From the IMG/VR virus record IMGVR_UViG_3300028602_000002, positions 1 to 64,000 of that record: a DNA stretch of 64,000 nucleotides, one strand, 5' to 3'. The notes under the pieces are model-generated. The model ran no database searches and was not told the origin of the DNA. It saw nothing but the letters and a program-made list of their open reading frames with translations. Position 1 is the stretch's first letter. Each line of letters begins with the position of its first letter. The translations under genes were made by a program, and so were the position numbers. Shown here in pieces: positions 7,259 through 22,499 of the stretch. The DNA comes from a virus. Taxonomy: Duplodnaviria; Caudoviricetes.

Positions 7259-7287
7259 TTGACAAATTTCAATTTCTATGGTATAAT
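7259..7287 (+). promoter_or_regulatory. sigmaA-type promoter of the tRNA cluster
   Basis: TTGACA-17-TATAAT followed by ATATATAG. Confidence 0.9.
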
Positions 7288-7312: not shown

Positions 7313-7336
7313 GGCGGGTTCGTATAATGGCTAGTA
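7313..7336 (+). pseudogene. 5' fragment of a tRNA gene (acceptor 5' strand and D-arm only)
   Basis: GGCGGGT TC GTATAATGGCTAGTA, then the GIY-YIG leader. Confidence 0.5.
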
Positions 7337-7364: not shown

Positions 7365-8012
7365 ATGGGATTCATTTATAGAATTACTAATAAAATAAAC
7401 AATAAAAGTTATATTGGTAAAACTGAAACAAATATTGAAACAAGATTTAAAGAGCATATTAAAGAGAGTAAGAGAGAAAGAAGTAAAAATAGACCTTTGT
7501 ATGCAGCGATAAAAAAATATGGAATTGAAAATTTTAAAATCGAGTTAATTGAAGAGATAGTAGATAATCTTGAAGAAAGAGAAATGCATTATATACAAAA
7601 GTATGATACTTATGGCTCAACTGGATATAATGCAACTATAGGTGGTGATAGTAAAAGATATTTAAATTATGATGCTATTGTAAATTGCTATCATCAAGAA
7701 CAGAACATTACTAAGGTAGCCAACCTTATGAGGTGTGATAGAAAAACAGTTGGCAATATTTTAAGACAAAATAATGTTATTACTACATCTTCAGGAGGCA
7801 TGACTCGCAAAAAATTAGGAAAACCTGTTAAACAATACTCTTTAAAAGGAGAATATATAGCAACATATCCTTCAACTGGAGAAGCTGCTTTTATTTTATT
7901 TCAAAATAGAGATAAGCGAAAACATATTGCTGCTTGTGCTAGTAATATTCGTAAAACAGCATATGGTTATAAATGGAAGTATTGCATAACAAATGATGAT
8001 TTGGCCCCTTAG
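7365..8012 (+). CDS. GIY-YIG homing endonuclease with HTH and NUMOD1-type domains
   Basis: GFIYRITN...YIGKT, GYN.T.GG and TAYGYKWKY motifs. Confidence 0.9.
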   Translation: MGFIYRITNKINNKSYIGKTETNIETRFKEHIKESKRERSKNRPLYAAIKKYGIENFKIELIEEIVDNLEEREMHYIQKYDTYGSTGYNATIGGDSKRYLNYDAIVNCYHQEQNITKVANLMRCDRKTVGNILRQNNVITTSSGGMTRKKLGKPVKQYSLKGEYIATYPSTGEAAFILFQNRDKRKHIAACASNIRKTAYGYKWKYCITNDDLAP

Positions 8013-8079
8013 TCTAATTGGTAAGGACACTAGCCTTTCAAGCTGGTATTGTTGGGTTCAAATCCCACAGGGGTCACCA
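8003..8079 (+). tRNA. tRNA-Glu(TTC)
   Basis: cloverleaf, anticodon loop CTTTCAA, encoded CCA. Confidence 0.95.
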
Positions 8080-8091
8080 AGAAAACAAAAT

Positions 8092-8177
8092 GGGCGGGTG
8101 TTGGAATGGTATACATAACAGACTTAAAATCTGTTGCCTGTAAGGGATTGAGGGTTCGAATCCCTCTCCGCCCACCA
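8092..8177 (+). tRNA. tRNA-Leu(TAA)
   Basis: loop CTTAAAA, long variable arm, CCA. Confidence 0.95.
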
Positions 8178-8208
8178 AATATTTTTAGTAAATGAAAGGA
8201 GTATAGTT

Positions 8209-8622
8209 ATGTTACCTGTAAATCCAGCATTTAGATCACATGTAGCTGTTATAGATCAAATAATGCGAGACTATTTTAATGGCTTTGCTGAAGTTAAACA
8301 GATTGAGGTTATAGACTTAGAAGATGGCATTGAGAAAGTAATTTTCAATGATCCAGCAACTATTGTTATCTTCAAAGATGGCACTAAAATTGTTGTTAAG
8401 ACAACTGATGGTGATGAATTTCAGCCTGAAATAGGTTTTGCTATGGCTATGATGAAAGCTGTTTTTGGTAGTCGTGGTTCTTACAAGAAGTGGATTAAGC
8501 AATGGTTACCACAGGGAGAAGAAGATGATTATGATTTTGCAGTAAAACCATTTATTTCCCCTTCAATGGAAGACATTGGTAAAGAAACTCAATTAAGTTT
8601 ACCAAGAGAAAAGCGGGCATAG
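8209..8622 (+). CDS. conserved phage hypothetical protein
   Basis: IEKVIFNDPATIVIFKDGTK motif; stop lies inside tRNA-Gly. Confidence 0.8.
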   Translation: MLPVNPAFRSHVAVIDQIMRDYFNGFAEVKQIEVIDLEDGIEKVIFNDPATIVIFKDGTKIVVKTTDGDEFQPEIGFAMAMMKAVFGSRGSYKKWIKQWLPQGEEDDYDFAVKPFISPSMEDIGKETQLSLPREKRA

Positions 8623-8686
8623 TTTAAAGGTAAAATCTCTGGCTTCCAACCAGATTATAAGGGTTCGATTCCCTTTGTCCGCCCCA
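8613..8686 (+). tRNA. tRNA-Gly(TCC)
   Basis: loop CTTCCAA, T-arm, CCA. Confidence 0.95.
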
Positions 8687-8688
8687 AT

Positions 8689-8766
8689 AGCGGGATGGAG
8701 CAGTCAGGTCAGCTCGTCAGATTCATATTCTGAAGGTCGTGGGTTCGAATCCCACTCCCGCGACCA
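8689..8766 (+). tRNA. tRNA-Met(CAT), initiator-like acceptor end
   Basis: loop TTCATAT, unpaired 1:72, CCA. Confidence 0.9.
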
Positions 8767-8814
8767 AGAAAATTAGGAGGATTTTCCTCAATCAATTATA
8801 TGGAGGCGATTTTT

Positions 8815-8955
8815 ATGGAAAAGTTAAAAGAATTAGTTGATCAAGCTGTTGAAGAAGCAGAAAAATTAGAAGAGGTTGCTTTTGCTAGACATATACAACA
8901 TACTTTAAAAAGAGCACAGGATTTTATCCAAAGAGTTTTAGAAAGACAAGAATAA
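8815..8955 (+). CDS. 46-aa hypothetical protein
   Basis: RBS GGAGG; ends flush with tRNA-Thr. Confidence 0.6.
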   Translation: MEKLKELVDQAVEEAEKLEEVAFARHIQHTLKRAQDFIQRVLERQE

Positions 8956-9032
8956 GCTGGGCTAGCTCAATTTGGTAGAGCAGGGCTCTTGTAAAGCTCA
9001 GGTTAGGGGTTCGATGCCTCTGCCCAGCGCCA
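8956..9032 (+). tRNA. tRNA-Thr(TGT)
   Basis: loop CTTGTAA, CCA. Confidence 0.95.
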
Positions 9033-9108
9033 TGGGGTATCGCCAAGTTGGTAAGGCGCTTGACTGTTAATCAAGTTATCGTAGGTTCGAGTCCTACTAC
9101 CCCAGCCA
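9033..9108 (+). tRNA. tRNA-Asn(GTT)
   Basis: loop CTGTTAA, CCA. Confidence 0.95.
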
Positions 9109-9319
9109 TTGGTTATAATGCAGGTATCAGCTGCTATCCTCCAGTTTTGGTCTGTTCTGGAATATGAGCTAGTGATTCATACAGAAAAACAGACATCAAG
9201 ACATGAGGGCTTAAAACGGATTCCCCGCCGTGGTCTGGGCCAGCGTTGCTGTCACATCAGCCCGAGAAAAACTTACGCCGCAAGTTTAGGGGTTTAAAGC
9301 GGCAAACAACTGAGTCAAT
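9108..9319 (+). ncRNA. unidentified ~210-nt structured RNA with a possible pseudoknot
   Basis: nested stems GTCTGTT/AACAGAC, TATGAG/TTCATA and AAACTT/AAGTTT; loop GCCGC is complementary to downstream GCGGC. Confidence 0.55.
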
Positions 9320-9704
9320 GGGAGTTATTAATATAAAATGCGTCATTTGTGATAGTGAATTTGTTTTAAATGGTAAGCAAGGTGGTCAAAATAGAATTAT
9401 TTGTTATGGTTGTTTGCCCACTGGTTTGAATAGACAAGAAAGAAATAATCGAAGACGAGAACTTTTCTATTACAAAGCACAACAAATGAAGCTGTCACTG
9501 GGATGTAGTAAGTGTGGATATAATAAGTGTGCTGCGGCTTTAGAGTGGCATCACCCATATGATAACAAGGAACATAATTTATCAACTTTGTTAAATGTTA
9601 GTTTGTCGCTGTATATGCAAGAGGTTCAAAAATGTGAACTACTATGTGCTAACTGCCATAGGGAGCATCACTTTAAAACAACGGGGTGTGGCGCAATTTG
9701 GTAG
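9318..9704 (+). CDS. HNH homing endonuclease
   Basis: CSKCGY...LEWHH...C.LLCANCHREHH; start uncertain; stop lies inside tRNA-Pro. Confidence 0.85.
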   Translation: MGVINIKCVICDSEFVLNGKQGGQNRIICYGCLPTGLNRQERNNRRRELFYYKAQQMKLSLGCSKCGYNKCAAALEWHHPYDNKEHNLSTLLNVSLSLYMQEVQKCELLCANCHREHHFKTTGCGAIW

Positions 9705-9758
9705 CGCACTACATTTGGGATGTAGGGGCTGCAGGTTCAAATCCTGTCACTCCGACCA
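9682..9758 (+). tRNA. tRNA-Pro(TGG)
   Basis: loop TTTGGGA, CCA. Confidence 0.95.
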
Positions 9759-9773
9759 CTTAGTTTAATCGCT

Positions 9774-10369
9774 CTTTAATAACTTCATAATTAATTGTAA
9801 ATTCAACTCAGTGAAGAAGGGTTTGTCAGCCCTGCTGAGATGCATCGGAAAGTGTGTGATTCTTGATTGGGATACTGATCAGGATAGCATTTTTGTGGCT
9901 GTGAAGTCATGGGAGAAGGAACAAAGTTCCAACACTAAGATGTAGTTCTGTGTAGCCTATTCGACTTAAATCACAAGACTCATGGCAGCGACAATAGACG
10001 CCCAGATGGGAAGAATCCAGATAGACTACAAGCATGGTAGCTAGAGTCAATGTCTGGAAACACCAATTAAGCTGTTGGCGATGAACCTGAGAAATCAGGG
10101 TATAACATGAGAACTTGGTACGAGTAGCCCAGCCGCCCACAATCAATTACATGATAGTTGGGGTAATGCCCAAGAAGAATATTAATTCTGAAGGCGGGTG
10201 AAAGTTGGAGGTAATCAATCCTCTGTAGTCTTGGGTCTTATGACCGGGGTAAGAAAGTTAGGGGTAGCTCCCCGAAGCTCAGGCTTATTTCACTACTGGA
10301 TGAATAAAGAGGGTAGGAGCATGGGAAGGCGAAGGTCTGAATTTACAATTAATTATGGAGTTATTAAGG
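9774..10369 (+). ncRNA. ROOL-like large structured RNA (~595 nt)
   Basis: 32-bp terminal helix (9774-9805 with 10338-10369), many internal hairpins, no credible ORF; size and tRNA-cluster context fit ROOL. Confidence 0.75.
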
Positions 10370-10402
10370 ATTAACTTTTCAGGTAATGTAGGAGTTGATT
10401 TA

Positions 10403-10561
10403 ATGGGAAAACCTAAAAAACATAAAAGGAAAGGTCCAAAATCAACAAGAGCAGGTTGCCTTTTGTGTAAACCACATAAAAGACAAGGAGTAATTACACC
10501 AACTGTTCAGGAGTTTAAAGCAATAGAAAGAGAAAAGGAAATGCGGGGGTATATACCGTAA
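10403..10561 (+). CDS. small basic protein (CLLCKPHK)
   Basis: RBS GGAG; stop lies inside tRNA-Tyr. Confidence 0.65.
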   Translation: MGKPKKHKRKGPKSTRAGCLLCKPHKRQGVITPTVQEFKAIEREKEMRGYIP

Positions 10562-10631
10562 GTGGGAGCGGGTCTGACTGTAAATCAGATGTCGAAAGGC
10601 TCGGGTGGTTCGACTCCATCTGCCCCCACCA
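10545..10631 (+). tRNA. tRNA-Tyr(GTA)
   Basis: loop CTGTAAA, long variable arm, CCA. Confidence 0.9.
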
Positions 10632-10741
10632 GATATTAATAGTGGGGACGCTATGAACATTTTTTTAATTATATGATAAATGGAAATGATAGTCATAAGC
10701 GTCCCTACTTTTTTCTAAAAAAAGATCAAAAGGAGAACATA

Positions 10742-11371
10742 ATGCCAACAGAAATTCGTTATCAAAGCTGGGATGGCGGTAGTGGTGTAAATGATAAACA
10801 GACTTTAATTGGATATTGTAAAGAAGATCCTAAAGAAGTGTTAAAGAAGGTTTATAAAGAGTATTTTATTAATCGCTATAAAGATTTATACCGCCCTGTT
10901 GACTATAATTTTCCTAATAATGTAGCTGGTTTAGTTATAAAAGAGATAACATTTAATGAGGTTCCTGGTTGTCAAATTACGGGAACATTGGAAGATCTAG
11001 ATTTAAGTATTGCTAAAGGTAAAAATTTAAATCGAGATAGAAAATCTTTTAGAGATGCACTTGAGAATGCTATTAAATGGCATACTTCCTATATAGATGG
11101 AACACTATCTGATCGCTATGTGGCTCAAGTTCAGGAAGTTAAAGAAGTAACTCTTAATGAAGATTTACAAAAGTATTTTGGTATTTATGACAATGGATAT
11201 GATGATGTTTATTATGTAGAATTGTTAGCCAAAACAAAACAGGAAGCAGTTGATATGTTTAAGCAATACTTAGAAATTGAATGTCAAGAAGATTTACTTA
11301 TTAATAAGGGAAACCTTACTGTAATTCATTCATCAGCTTTTGATTTTACTTTAAAACAAAAGGGAGAATGA
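10742..11371 (+). CDS. hypothetical protein
   Basis: RBS AAGGAG upstream of ATG 10742. Confidence 0.7.
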   Translation: MPTEIRYQSWDGGSGVNDKQTLIGYCKEDPKEVLKKVYKEYFINRYKDLYRPVDYNFPNNVAGLVIKEITFNEVPGCQITGTLEDLDLSIAKGKNLNRDRKSFRDALENAIKWHTSYIDGTLSDRYVAQVQEVKEVTLNEDLQKYFGIYDNGYDDVYYVELLAKTKQEAVDMFKQYLEIECQEDLLINKGNLTVIHSSAFDFTLKQKGE

Positions 11372-11547
11372 GTAGAATGTTTGAGAATGATATTACAAAA
11401 TGTGCAAATGAAGAATGTAAAATTAAAAATAGCTGTTTTAGATATACTTGTAAACCAGATTCTCACTGGCAATCTTATGCTATTTTCAACACTGAATTAA
11501 ATGATATATGTGATTTTTTTATAGATAACAAAAATGTGGTGGCTTAG
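11368..11547 (+). CDS. 59-aa Cys-rich protein (DITKC..C...C.RY)
   Basis: ATGA overlap with the upstream gene; stop lies inside tRNA-Ile. Confidence 0.65.
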   Translation: MSRMFENDITKCANEECKIKNSCFRYTCKPDSHWQSYAIFNTELNDICDFFIDNKNVVA

Positions 11548-11613
11548 CATAGCTGGTAATGCAGTCCGCTGATAACGGAAAGAGGTCAGGTTCGATCCCT
11601 GAAGCCACCACCA
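11538..11613 (+). tRNA. tRNA-Ile(GAT)
   Basis: loop CTGATAA, CCA. Confidence 0.95.
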
Positions 11614-11638
11614 TTATTTTTTTTGGAGGAGAAGTAAA

Positions 11639-12079
11639 ATGCCAGTAGTAATTAGTCAATTTAAAGGTCAGTATAGTTTTTTGAGTAACTTCCATTATGC
11701 TGATGTTGAGTATGAAGAAATGAAATTTAAGAGTAGTGAGGCAGCTTTCCAAGCGGCTAAAACAGAAGACAAAGAATTAAGAAAGAAGTTTCAAACTTTA
11801 TCCCCAAGTCAAGCTAAGAAATTAGGAAGAAGAATTCCTTTGAGAGAAGATTGGGAAGATGTTAAAGTTGCAATAATGGAAGAGATTGTAATGAATAAAT
11901 TCACACAAAATATTGGTCTTAAAGAACAATTATTAGAAACTAAAGATGCTATTTTAATAGAGGGAAACTGGTGGCATGATGATTTTTGGGGAGTGGATAT
12001 TGAAAGTGGATTTGGATTGAATCGTTTGGGATTGATTCTAATGAAAGTTCGTGACAACCTACAGAATAGGAGTGAATAA
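11639..12079 (+). CDS. NADAR (YbiA-like) ADP-ribose hydrolase
   Basis: FLSNF, SEAAFQAAK, AKKLGR, KFTQN, D.FWG and N.LG.ILM motifs. Confidence 0.9.
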   Translation: MPVVISQFKGQYSFLSNFHYADVEYEEMKFKSSEAAFQAAKTEDKELRKKFQTLSPSQAKKLGRRIPLREDWEDVKVAIMEEIVMNKFTQNIGLKEQLLETKDAILIEGNWWHDDFWGVDIESGFGLNRLGLILMKVRDNLQNRSE

Positions 12080-12084
12080 TACTA

Positions 12085-12297
12085 ATGCAAGATAGTATGT
12101 TTTTATATGGTTTTATTAATTATCCTGAATTTAGTGGAGCTGTATGGAATACACCAAATGGTAAGATAGTAGTTTGTCATGGTAAATTAAATCTTAATAA
12201 CAATCTATCAATAAAAGATGCAGAAGGAAATGATGTAGCTGATATAGACTTAAGGAATACTTTAATGAATATATTGAAATTGAGTATAATTTTCTAA
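12085..12297 (+). CDS. hypothetical protein
   Basis: RBS and ORF. Confidence 0.55.
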   Translation: MQDSMFLYGFINYPEFSGAVWNTPNGKIVVCHGKLNLNNNLSIKDAEGNDVADIDLRNTLMNILKLSIIF

Positions 12298-12320
12298 TCC
12301 TTAACTAAGGGGGTTAGAAG

Positions 12321-12560
12321 ATGAGTAGAAGCTATAAGAAAACTCCGATAATAAAGAGTACTTCACCTATTTACAGAAGATTTATGAAAAAACAAGCTAA
12401 TAGAAAAGTTAGAAGAACAGATAATATTCCTAATTTTATGCAGTTTAAAAAAGTTTTTCCTTCTTGGGGTATTCATGATTATGTTAGTTTATGTCCAAGG
12501 GAAGATAAACCTCATTGGATGACTGATGACTATTGGGAGAAATGTTATCTGAGGAAGTAA
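12321..12560 (+). CDS. small basic protein (MSRSYKKTP...)
   Basis: KKQANRKVRR and W.I.DY motifs. Confidence 0.75.
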   Translation: MSRSYKKTPIIKSTSPIYRRFMKKQANRKVRRTDNIPNFMQFKKVFPSWGIHDYVSLCPREDKPHWMTDDYWEKCYLRK

Positions 12561-12563
12561 TAC

Positions 12564-12638
12564 GGGGTATTAGTTTAGTGGTAAAATACCAGGTTGTCGC
12601 CCTGGAGTCAGGGGTTCAATTCCCCCTATATCCCGCCA
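12564..12638 (+). tRNA. tRNA-Asp(GTC)
   Basis: CCAGG/CCTGG stem with loop TTGTCGC, CCA. Confidence 0.9.
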
Positions 12639-12668
12639 CTAATTTAAAAGAGTGAAAGGAGCATATTT

Positions 12669-12989
12669 ATGATTTTTGATGATGAAGTTAAAGGTACGGA
12701 ATTTGAGGAGTATTATGAACTAGCTATTCTCATTGGGCAGTTGATTAATGCGGGAATTAAAGAAGGTCAAGTTGAAGAATTAGTTGAACCATTCTTTTAC
12801 TTAGTAGAAGAAATGTATCGTGTATCTATGAATTCTGATATTGCTAGATTATCAGCCCAAATGTATAAAGAGAAATATGAAGCTTACTTGGACGCTGGAT
12901 TTGATCATGATCAATCTTTTAAATTATTAATAGCAGACAGGCAAGATTTTTCAAGGAATATTTCTAACTTAAGTAAGGTAAAAAAATAA
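12669..12989 (+). CDS. hypothetical protein
   Basis: RBS AAGGAG. Confidence 0.7.
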   Translation: MIFDDEVKGTEFEEYYELAILIGQLINAGIKEGQVEELVEPFFYLVEEMYRVSMNSDIARLSAQMYKEKYEAYLDAGFDHDQSFKLLIADRQDFSRNISNLSKVKK

Positions 12990-12990
12990 T

Positions 12991-13067
12991 GGAGTTGGTA
13001 GCTTAATTGGTAGAGCGCCAGATTGTGGCTCTGGTCTGTGCGGGTTCGAGTCCCGTCCTTCTCCCCA
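12991..13067 (+). tRNA. tRNA-His(GTG)
   Basis: G-1/C73, loop TTGTGGC, CCA; two U:U mismatches in the acceptor stem. Confidence 0.9.
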
Positions 13068-13077
13068 ATATTTTTCC

Positions 13078-13106
13078 TTGACAAATCTAAATTTTTATGA
13101 TATAAT
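13078..13106 (+). promoter_or_regulatory. sigmaA-type promoter
   Basis: TTGACA-17-TATAAT followed by ATATATAG. Confidence 0.9.
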
Positions 13107-13140
13107 ATATATAGAAAGTAGAAAAAAGGAGAATAAGCCA

Positions 13141-13217
13141 GAGGGTGAAGCTCAAAAGGCAGTAGCAGCGGACTTTTAATCCGTCGGTTGTGGGTTCGAT
13201 CCCCACCGCCCTCACCA
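13141..13217 (+). tRNA. tRNA-Lys(TTT)
   Basis: loop CTTTTAA, CCA. Confidence 0.95.
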
Positions 13218-20830: not shown

Positions 20831-20911
20831 GGGGCTGACGGGTGTCGTCAGGTGGAAAATCTCCTACGGAGCCTCACCTGAACCTGGGTTCAACTCCCAG
20901 CAGCTCCACCA
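20831..20911 (+). ncRNA. minimal tmRNA-like RNA (tRNA-like domain only)
   Basis: GGGGCTG/CAGCTCC-A-CCA acceptor with G3:U70, stemless D-loop, CAGGTG/CACCTG helix, T-arm CTGGG-TTCAACT-CCCAG; no anticodon arm or tag ORF. Confidence 0.75.
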
Positions 20912-22218: not shown

Positions 22219-22372
22219 CCATCCGCTACTGTGAAGGGGAGAAGGTTAAGACAACTACTTTGGAAGATCTATCCAAACAAGTGGAGTCATATTTGGCGAT
22301 GAAGCTTCCCAGTTGTCTTTCTCCTCAGGATATAATTGAGATTGCAAACTTGATTGATTATCGTGAAAGAAT

Positions 22373-22499
22373 TGGCGGACGCCAGGGGTAAGGCGTGCCT
22401 GAGTGGGAGTGGTTACCGGCCGTAGACCACAGGTAGGGCGAGCAGAGTGTTAAAACCCTAAAGGATAGCTGTTCAAGTAGGTTCGAAACCTACCCGCCA
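22373..22499 (+). ncRNA. tRNA-like RNA with an expanded central domain
   Basis: TGGCGG/CCGCCA stem, D-like hairpin ACGCC/GGCGT, T-arm GTAGG-TTCGAAA-CCTAC, two extra stems, no anticodon loop. Confidence 0.65.

Follow-up and report, generated by a model that had tools for sequence, protein, structure and literature searches.

Phage protein genes that end on stop codons inside the following tRNA gene: a probable by-product of gene packing and cassette exchange

The IMG/VR virus record IMGVR_UViG_3300028602_000002 is an uncultured member of the Caudoviricetes (Duplodnaviria) with a genome of 115,422 bp that assembles as a circle and has the same ~30 nucleotides (nt) at both ends. The 64,000-nt stretch analysed here (the window) is the first part of this genome. 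The phage has a GC content of 32% and a large terminase that is 54% identical to its counterpart in Geobacillus virus E3, and a search of the GenBank phage collection returned no close DNA relative. Its 25 tRNA genes form two clusters that diverge from each other: the first is on the + strand (8003-13217), the second on the - strand outside the window (104740-111628). Several open reading frames (ORFs) lie among the tRNA genes of the first cluster, and five of them take their stop codon from inside the tRNA gene that follows.

The first-pass annotation had listed these five overlaps, and we reproduced all of their coordinates using ARAGORN, Rfam, the ORF list and a frame-by-frame script. The overlaps reach 10-23 nt into the following tRNA. 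When we looked for any same-strand gene with its first in-frame stop in the 5' part of the next tRNA, we recovered the five cases in the window and two further ones. It is extremely improbable that the overlaps are an artefact of miscalled tRNA 5' ends or of chance frames. ARAGORN and Rfam agree on the tRNA genes, and the acceptor stems of the tRNAs for Glu, Gly, Pro and Ile pair perfectly at the called 5' ends. The 5' end of tRNA-Tyr, which extends to 10631 and has the lowest Rfam score among all the tRNAs (38.5 bits), is ambiguous and lends the artefact some credit. ARAGORN places this end at 10547, which leaves two acceptor mismatches, and moving it to 10545 yields a perfect 7-bp stem with a 4-nt connector to the D arm. 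The +1 position is therefore ambiguous by 2 nt, and the overlap of ORF 10403 is either 15 or 17 nt. A sixth frame, which was said to end inside a tRNA-like RNA, does exist (22260-22391, + strand, 43 amino acids), but it begins with TTG and its status as a coding sequence is doubtful.

Each of the five ORFs in the window has homologues or family matches; for this reason we class all of them as genes and reject the possibility of chance frames. The first ORF matches the GIY-YIG catalytic domain (PF01541, 5.7e-10) and homing-endonuclease PHROGs (4e-28), is 35% identical to T4 SegB across the catalytic domain, and has a NUMOD1 match below threshold. ORF 8209 belongs to a widespread phage family of unassigned function, with 286 homologues and variable C-termini. 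The HNH ORF matches HNH PHROGs at 2e-18 and has no Pfam HNH match at E 0.01 or better. The start of ORF 11368, which matches phrog_20586 at 1e-8, is joined through ATGA to ORF 10673-11371, an arrangement of translational coupling. The product of ORF 10403 is a micro-protein with at least 181 homologues in phages and several bacterial phyla, and is taken up below.

We next compared the locus with IMG/VR contig 3300000365_000009 (L003), a 10-kb sequence that is the only syntenic relative found. Single-protein scans of IMG/VR with ORF 10673, ORF 8209 and ORF 11368 gave no further relatives, an IMG/VR scan with the NADAR protein returned the L003 contig alone, and two metagenome scans, one for NADAR and one for the DNA pattern of the tRNA-Thr/tRNA-Asn junction, had no hits. 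L003 has the same tRNA order (Glu-Leu-Gly-Met-Thr-Asn-Pro-Tyr-Ile), together with the ROOL RNA and the NADAR gene. The first-pass annotation had asked whether the overlaps persist in relatives, and none of the five is kept in L003. There, tRNA-Glu follows directly after the shared promoter, with no GIY-YIG gene in between; the ORF 8209 homologue carries a stop of its own and is followed by an extra 87-amino-acid ORF that abuts tRNA-Gly; and the HNH gene is absent before tRNA-Pro. The slot before tRNA-Tyr (L003 6339-6893) holds a different endonuclease, of the GIY-YIG/NUMOD3 type, whose stop falls at positions 8-10 of tRNA-Tyr, and tRNA-Ile is preceded by an unrelated membrane-like ORF that has its own stop, 7 nt short of the tRNA. 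At tRNA-Thr the situation is reversed: an unrelated 70-amino-acid ORF of L003 runs into the tRNA, whereas the ORF of the window phage has its own stop. At Gly, Thr, Pro and Ile, homology between the two sequences restarts with tRNA base +1 or no more than ~6 nt ahead of it. Identity is 93-97% for tRNA-Met, tRNA-Thr, tRNA-Asn and tRNA-Pro and 65-73% for the tRNAs that lie behind GIY-YIG genes. Together, these comparisons identify the tRNAs as apparent conserved anchors and the ORFs as exchangeable cassettes set flush against them.

Table 1. Features of the first tRNA/ORF cluster and of related loci. Positions are those of the window unless marked as genome positions; aa, amino acids.
Feature	Position	Strand	Remarks
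Consensus sigma-A-type promoter of the tRNA/ORF operon	7259-7287	+	12/12 hexamer matches plus TG; aligns to L003
Remnant of an older tRNA-Glu	7313-7336	+	First ~24 nt (5' acceptor strand, D arm); aligns to the 5' end of L003 tRNA-Glu
GIY-YIG ORF, 215 aa	7365-8012	+	Stop TAG = positions 8-10 of tRNA-Glu (8003-8079)
tRNA-Glu(UUC) and tRNA-Leu(UAA)	8003-8177	+	
ORF 8209, 137 aa	8209-8622	+	Stop TAG = positions 8-10 of tRNA-Gly (8613-8686)
Small ORF with its own TAA	8800-8955	+	Ends 0 nt before tRNA-Thr
tRNA-Thr, then tRNA-Asn	8956-9032; 9033-9108	+	Zero spacer between the two
HNH cassette, 372 nt	9310-9681	+	Clean insertion exactly at the -1/+1 border of tRNA-Pro relative to L003
HNH ORF, 128 aa from ATG	9318 (ATG) or 9246 (TTG) to 9704	+	Stop TAG = positions 21-23 of tRNA-Pro (9682-9758)
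ROOL RNA inside the operon	9783-10357	+	Rfam RF03087, 367 bits; 86% identical in L003
ORF 10403, 52 aa	10403 (or 10355) to 10561	+	Stop TAA at positions 13-15 of tRNA-Tyr per ARAGORN
ORF 11368, 59 aa, Cys-rich	11368-11547	+	Stop TAG = positions 8-10 of tRNA-Ile (11538-11613)
NADAR-domain gene in the tRNA operon	11639-12079	+	PF08719, 1.4e-29
ORF with its own stop	12321-12560	+	Ends 3 nt before tRNA-Asp
tRNA-Asp	12564-12638	+	
ORF with its own stop	12669-12989	+	Ends 2 nt before tRNA-His
tRNA-His	12992-13067	+	
Mini-tmRNA (tRNA-like domain only, tag-less), 81 nt	20831-20911		
tmRNA	genome 103744-104092	-	Rfam, 119.5 bits
S-adenosylmethionine decarboxylase gene, complete	genome 106170-106553	-	PF02675, 6.9e-35; stop TGA 31 nt inside tRNA-Arg(tct)
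266-aa ORF, second cluster			Stop TAG overlaps base 1 of tRNA-Gly(gcc)
Further GIY-YIG gene, second cluster			Ends 1 nt before tRNA-Arg(acg)

Two of the cassettes in the window are predicted homing endonucleases. The GIY-YIG ORF combines a catalytic domain with a DNA-binding module, and its patchy presence is accompanied by co-conversion of flanking DNA, as is typical of GIY-YIG homing endonucleases. Between the shared operon promoter and this gene lies the tRNA-Glu stub (Table 1). The intact tRNA-Glu and the tRNA-Leu behind the gene appear to have arrived together with the endonuclease, because their identity to the L003 alleles is just 65% and 69%. The stub and the diverged tRNAs are the traces that homing accompanied by co-conversion of neighbouring tRNA genes, as shown for SegB, would be expected to leave. 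The window tRNA-Tyr is 73% identical to that of L003, which lies behind the L003 GIY-YIG gene; at this tRNA the homology does not return until the T arm, in the 3' third, which is the part of tRNA genes that T4 SegB cuts. In other large phages, the nearest homologues of the window GIY-YIG ORF (42-47% identity) also lie in tRNA clusters, but these genes end on their own stops and leave spacers of 5-44 nt or more.

The HNH ORF shows the motif and the patchy presence of HNH homing endonucleases. Its cassette is flanked by a 6-nt repeat (AAACAA), has its ATG 8 nt inside the insertion and lacks a stop codon of its own. On this evidence the predicted homing endonucleases appear to carry the overlap geometry along with the mobile element.

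According to the first-pass annotation, the overlaps would couple tRNA maturation to silencing of the encoded proteins, a proposal that it expected to fall if homologues stopped before the tRNA in most relatives. The homologue loci and L003 both show that they do. None of 80 loci with ORF 8209 homologues and none of 80 with GIY-YIG homologues has the gene ending in a tRNA, and for the 52-amino-acid ORF the counts are 2/55 viral and 0/68 bacterial loci. The C-terminal residues encoded by the tRNAs are kept only in near-identical copies (P0001, 99% identity; P0122, 87% identity).

To place these overlaps among phage tRNA clusters, we counted junctions at which an ORF of at least 50 amino acids precedes a tRNA. 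The present genome has 14 such junctions, and the comparison set, which is small and mixed, has 28 junctions and 95 tRNAs from IMG/VR loci, Enterococcus phage H1 and Alicyclobacillus phage KKP_3916. The ORF-to-tRNA spacer is no longer than 8 nt in 14/14 junctions here, compared to 5/28 at the other phage loci (Fisher p = 2e-7), and the ORF overlaps the tRNA in 7/14 compared to 2/28 (Fisher p = 0.003). Coliphage T5, with overlaps at 3 of 10 junctions, does not differ from this phage (p = 0.42). Genome-wide, seven protein genes borrow a tRNA stop. Two of these are in the second cluster, where the S-adenosylmethionine decarboxylase gene and a 266-amino-acid ORF run into their tRNAs (Table 1). The same cluster also contains a deoxycytidine monophosphate (dCMP) deaminase gene.

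Stop codons are easily found inside tRNA genes. The caveat in the first-pass annotation that positions 8-10 are often TAG was borne out, with TAG or TAA present there in 14/25 tRNAs. Frames entering a tRNA reach a stop within 15 nt in 41% of cases and within 30 nt in 57%, and the observed division between borrowed and own stops (7 vs 7) is about the split predicted from the latter figure. Adjacent ORFs of this genome also overlap one another, by 4-31 nt, and packing is therefore tight genome-wide. Overlaps are not enriched among endonuclease genes (2/3, vs 5/11 for other genes).

Taken together, these results make it probable that the overlaps are a by-product of extreme gene packing and of cassettes being set at tRNA borders, rather than a dedicated device. 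The conserved tRNA genes would act as anchors, and the slots between them would hold fast-changing cassettes, namely free-standing homing endonucleases and small accessory genes, that are exchanged or inserted as far as tRNA position +1. A junction between an ORF and a tRNA would require no signal, and the spacer could shrink to nothing. Because tRNAs carry built-in stop triplets (U8-A9-G10, which reads as TAG; TAA or TAG in the D loop; GGTAG at about positions 19-23), an ORF that lacks a stop would be lengthened by only 3-10 codons, which would do no harm. In the case of the endonucleases, the mobile element would bring the geometry along: the HNH cassette sits stop-less at the RNase P site of tRNA-Pro, and GIY-YIG genes would travel with the tRNA into which each reads. 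The mRNAs left after RNase P processing would have neither a stop nor a protective 3' end, and their probably low yield would be tolerated and would suit selfish or accessory genes.

Several observations weigh against this account. The junctions are far tighter than the 28 others (p = 2e-7). In Enterococcus phage H1, whose terminase marks it as a relative, the spacers measure 3-60 nt, and the extreme reached by this lineage and by T5 is left unexplained by packing alone. All seven overlaps end no more than 31 nt past +1, compared to 57% by chance, which hints at selection on overlap length. The phage also encodes a transfer-messenger RNA (tmRNA) whose tag is unusual, as well as a mini-tmRNA that has no tag, which would fit a link to ribosome rescue, though many tRNA-rich phages carry tmRNAs. 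Finally, the L003 comparison rests on one syntenic relative.

The remaining features of the locus suggest how these genes are transcribed. Consensus scans place the next promoter after that at 7259-7287 at position 13078 and detect no convincing + strand terminator between the two. Because there is one perfect promoter and no convincing terminator before 13078, the intervening stretch would be a single transcript of ~5.8 kb with 11 tRNAs, the ROOL RNA and ~13 ORFs. The NADAR protein is 95% identical in amino acid sequence in L003, and no other protein gene of the region is as well conserved. A GC-richer spacer of 200 nt (9109-9309), 95% identical to L003, separates tRNA-Asn from the HNH cassette. 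We considered this spacer as a structured RNA and rejected it: its fold z-score of -0.45 is no better than that of shuffled sequences, and it has no Rfam match. Its high identity probably reflects a block recently shared with L003.

RNase P cuts at tRNA position +1. The first-pass annotation was right that a cut there would strip the five ORFs of their stops, but a device that couples tRNA maturation to silencing is unsupported. The cut messages, five of them without a stop and all of them without a protective 3' structure, would likely give a low yield and engage ribosome rescue. We found no evidence that the overlaps are a selected regulatory device or a purpose-built silencing switch. Such a switch is disfavoured because the overlaps are not conserved, are not enriched among endonuclease genes and include a metabolic enzyme gene, and also because ORFs that stop 0-3 nt before the cut would fare almost the same.

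The overlaps could instead have been selected for self-limitation, chiefly of the endonucleases. The stop inside the tRNA would let RNase P generate a fast-decaying non-stop mRNA, host or phage tmRNA would tag the product, and potentially toxic endonucleases and accessory proteins, despite strong transcription, would be held at trace levels. We regard this as unlikely, though a part of the evidence speaks for it. The GIY-YIG gene is the first behind the perfect promoter of the tRNA operon, a position in which post-transcriptional damping would make sense, and the HNH cassette comes without a stop of its own. Unrelated HNH genes of T5 share the design, every overlap is short, and the idea has been published for segB and for F-TflI/II/IV (PMC2330249). 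The distribution of the overlaps speaks against it. Endonuclease genes show no enrichment (2/3, vs 5/11 for other genes), and one overlap, of 31 nt, belongs to the S-adenosylmethionine decarboxylase gene. The third GIY-YIG gene, T4 segB and the closest GIY-YIG homologues all have their own stops, and 0 overlaps are conserved in L003. Furthermore, ORFs that terminate by themselves 0-3 nt ahead of the cut would be deprived of a 3' end to nearly the same degree.

The tmRNA of the phage lies outside the window and the mini-tmRNA inside it (Table 1). The predicted tag of the former is AEPKLKAA, which ends in KAA where LAA is usual, and it may not be a normal degradation tag. Upstream of the tmRNA is an ORF with a HIRAN domain whose stop codon overlaps the first tmRNA base. 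These two RNAs raise a more elaborate scheme in which RNase P is a stop-removing switch: the proteins would be finished only on unprocessed precursors and otherwise be handled by the phage tmRNA or mini-tmRNA, in a circuit that the 52-amino-acid protein could join. If this were true, the phage rather than the host would decide whether proteins of the tRNA operon are destroyed or kept, and we judge it to be quite improbable. Co-occurrence of overlaps and tmRNA was followed in five records only, too few for statistics; a tmRNA is present in two fragments among them, and T5 shows none that passes the Rfam threshold. Because T5 has the same overlaps without a tmRNA match above that threshold, a phage tmRNA appears not to be needed for them.

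The micro-protein encoded by ORF 10403 is 52 amino acids long and very basic, with the core HKRKGPKSTRAGCLLCKPHKRQG, and the C-terminal tails vary within its family. An alignment of 28 sequences from phages, Alphaproteobacteria, Acidobacteriota, Gemmatimonadota, Solirubrobacterales and Clostridia has 12 invariant core positions. Neither the protein nor its relatives match Pfam even at E = 10 or NCBIfam even at E = 1, and searches of the PDB and the literature gave no match for the micro-protein. The family, which is very highly conserved, therefore appears to be uncatalogued and may merit a study of its own. Beyond genus-level synteny we found no conserved gene neighbour. The AlphaFold model has an extended or disordered core followed by one helix (mean pLDDT 72) and offers no fold worth searching. 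A likeness of the motif KPHKRQG to the C-terminus of ribosomal protein L36 was dropped, as it has no Pfam support even at E = 10.

For this protein, and for no other, we also considered a sensor of the ArfA/BrfA type. The protein would be translated from a message that has lost its stop to RNase P, would accumulate only when trans-translation is saturated or blocked, for example by the mini-tmRNA, and would act on the ribosome. The very high conservation of the basic core across phyla and its predicted extended or disordered state would be compatible with a protein that binds a conserved machine. In this family, two more phage proteins (L192 and L219) also stop at position 8 of a tRNA, and the L219 contig has a tmRNA. 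Nevertheless, this explanation is very unlikely. Removal of the stop is not conserved across the family, in which 53/55 viral and 68/68 bacterial members do not end in a tRNA. A hairpin is found before the stop in about half of the members and after it in about half, a count made with no control set, and so is not consistently placed before the stop. There is no PF03889 or BrfA-like match, and the protein resembles neither ArfA nor any entry of Pfam, NCBIfam or the PDB.

If packing and cassette exchange at tRNA borders do explain the overlaps, phage tRNA arrays would serve as landing pads on which cassettes come to abut the 5' end of a tRNA that provides their stop codon, and the present phage would be a quantified example. 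For annotation, the overlaps mean that phage gene calls that overlap a tRNA should not be discarded automatically.

Stop-less messages that arise through RNA processing or termination are also made by known genes. In arfA of E. coli and brfA of B. subtilis, processing or termination upstream of the stop yields a non-stop message, and the fate of the product depends on tmRNA. That design is conserved in a gene family with a shown sensing function; the arrangement described here is not conserved and has no sequence similarity to it. In mitochondria, excision of tRNAs from a polycistronic transcript sets the mRNA ends (tRNA punctuation), and ORFs abut or overlap tRNAs. Incomplete mitochondrial stops are completed by polyadenylation, a repair that is not known in bacteria.

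The closest likeness is the tRNA region of T5 (NC_005859), in which same-strand ORFs lie among tRNAs and stable RNAs and four annotated coding sequences stop inside the next tRNA. These are T5.057 in tRNA-Met (6 nt), hegD in tRNA-Gln (23 nt), hegC in tRNA-Ser (14 nt) and T5.069 in tRNA-Asn (24 nt); hegC and hegD encode HNH homing endonucleases, and T5.065 abuts tRNA-Lys at 0 nt. An annotation-independent script recovered the three T5 overlaps of ORFs of at least 40 amino acids and the T5.065 abutment. T5 differs from the present phage in having a Gram-negative host and no tmRNA above the Rfam threshold. Its HNH proteins are unrelated to the HNH protein of the window, and the geometry therefore seems to have arisen more than once. 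The present phage differs from T5 in that 7/14 junctions overlap, with an enzyme gene among them. The stop-borrowing arrangement itself is evidently not new, as it is already found in T5.

T4 SegB is a GIY-YIG endonuclease encoded in a tRNA cluster that recognises the T-psi-C motif of tRNA genes and brings about the joint inheritance of the tRNA region (Brok-Volchanskaya et al. 2008, PMC2330249). According to a proposal in the same work, the segB mRNA is impaired when the primary transcript is processed at tRNA-Arg, at a point between the last codon and the stop; the idea is also mentioned there for F-TflI/II/IV of T5 (PMC2330249). Like SegB, the window GIY-YIG gene lies inside a tRNA operon, is patchy among related phages and has co-converted flanking tRNAs; segB has its own TAA 5 nt before tRNA-Arg, in contrast to the window gene, whose stop lies inside the tRNA. 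The idea that processing limits expression is likewise not new, having been in print since 2008 for T4 segB and the T5 F-Tfl endonucleases, and to judge from our searches of the literature it has never been tested. The stop-less HNH cassette at the RNase P site of tRNA-Pro and the enzyme gene that runs 31 nt into a tRNA provide concrete cases for it.

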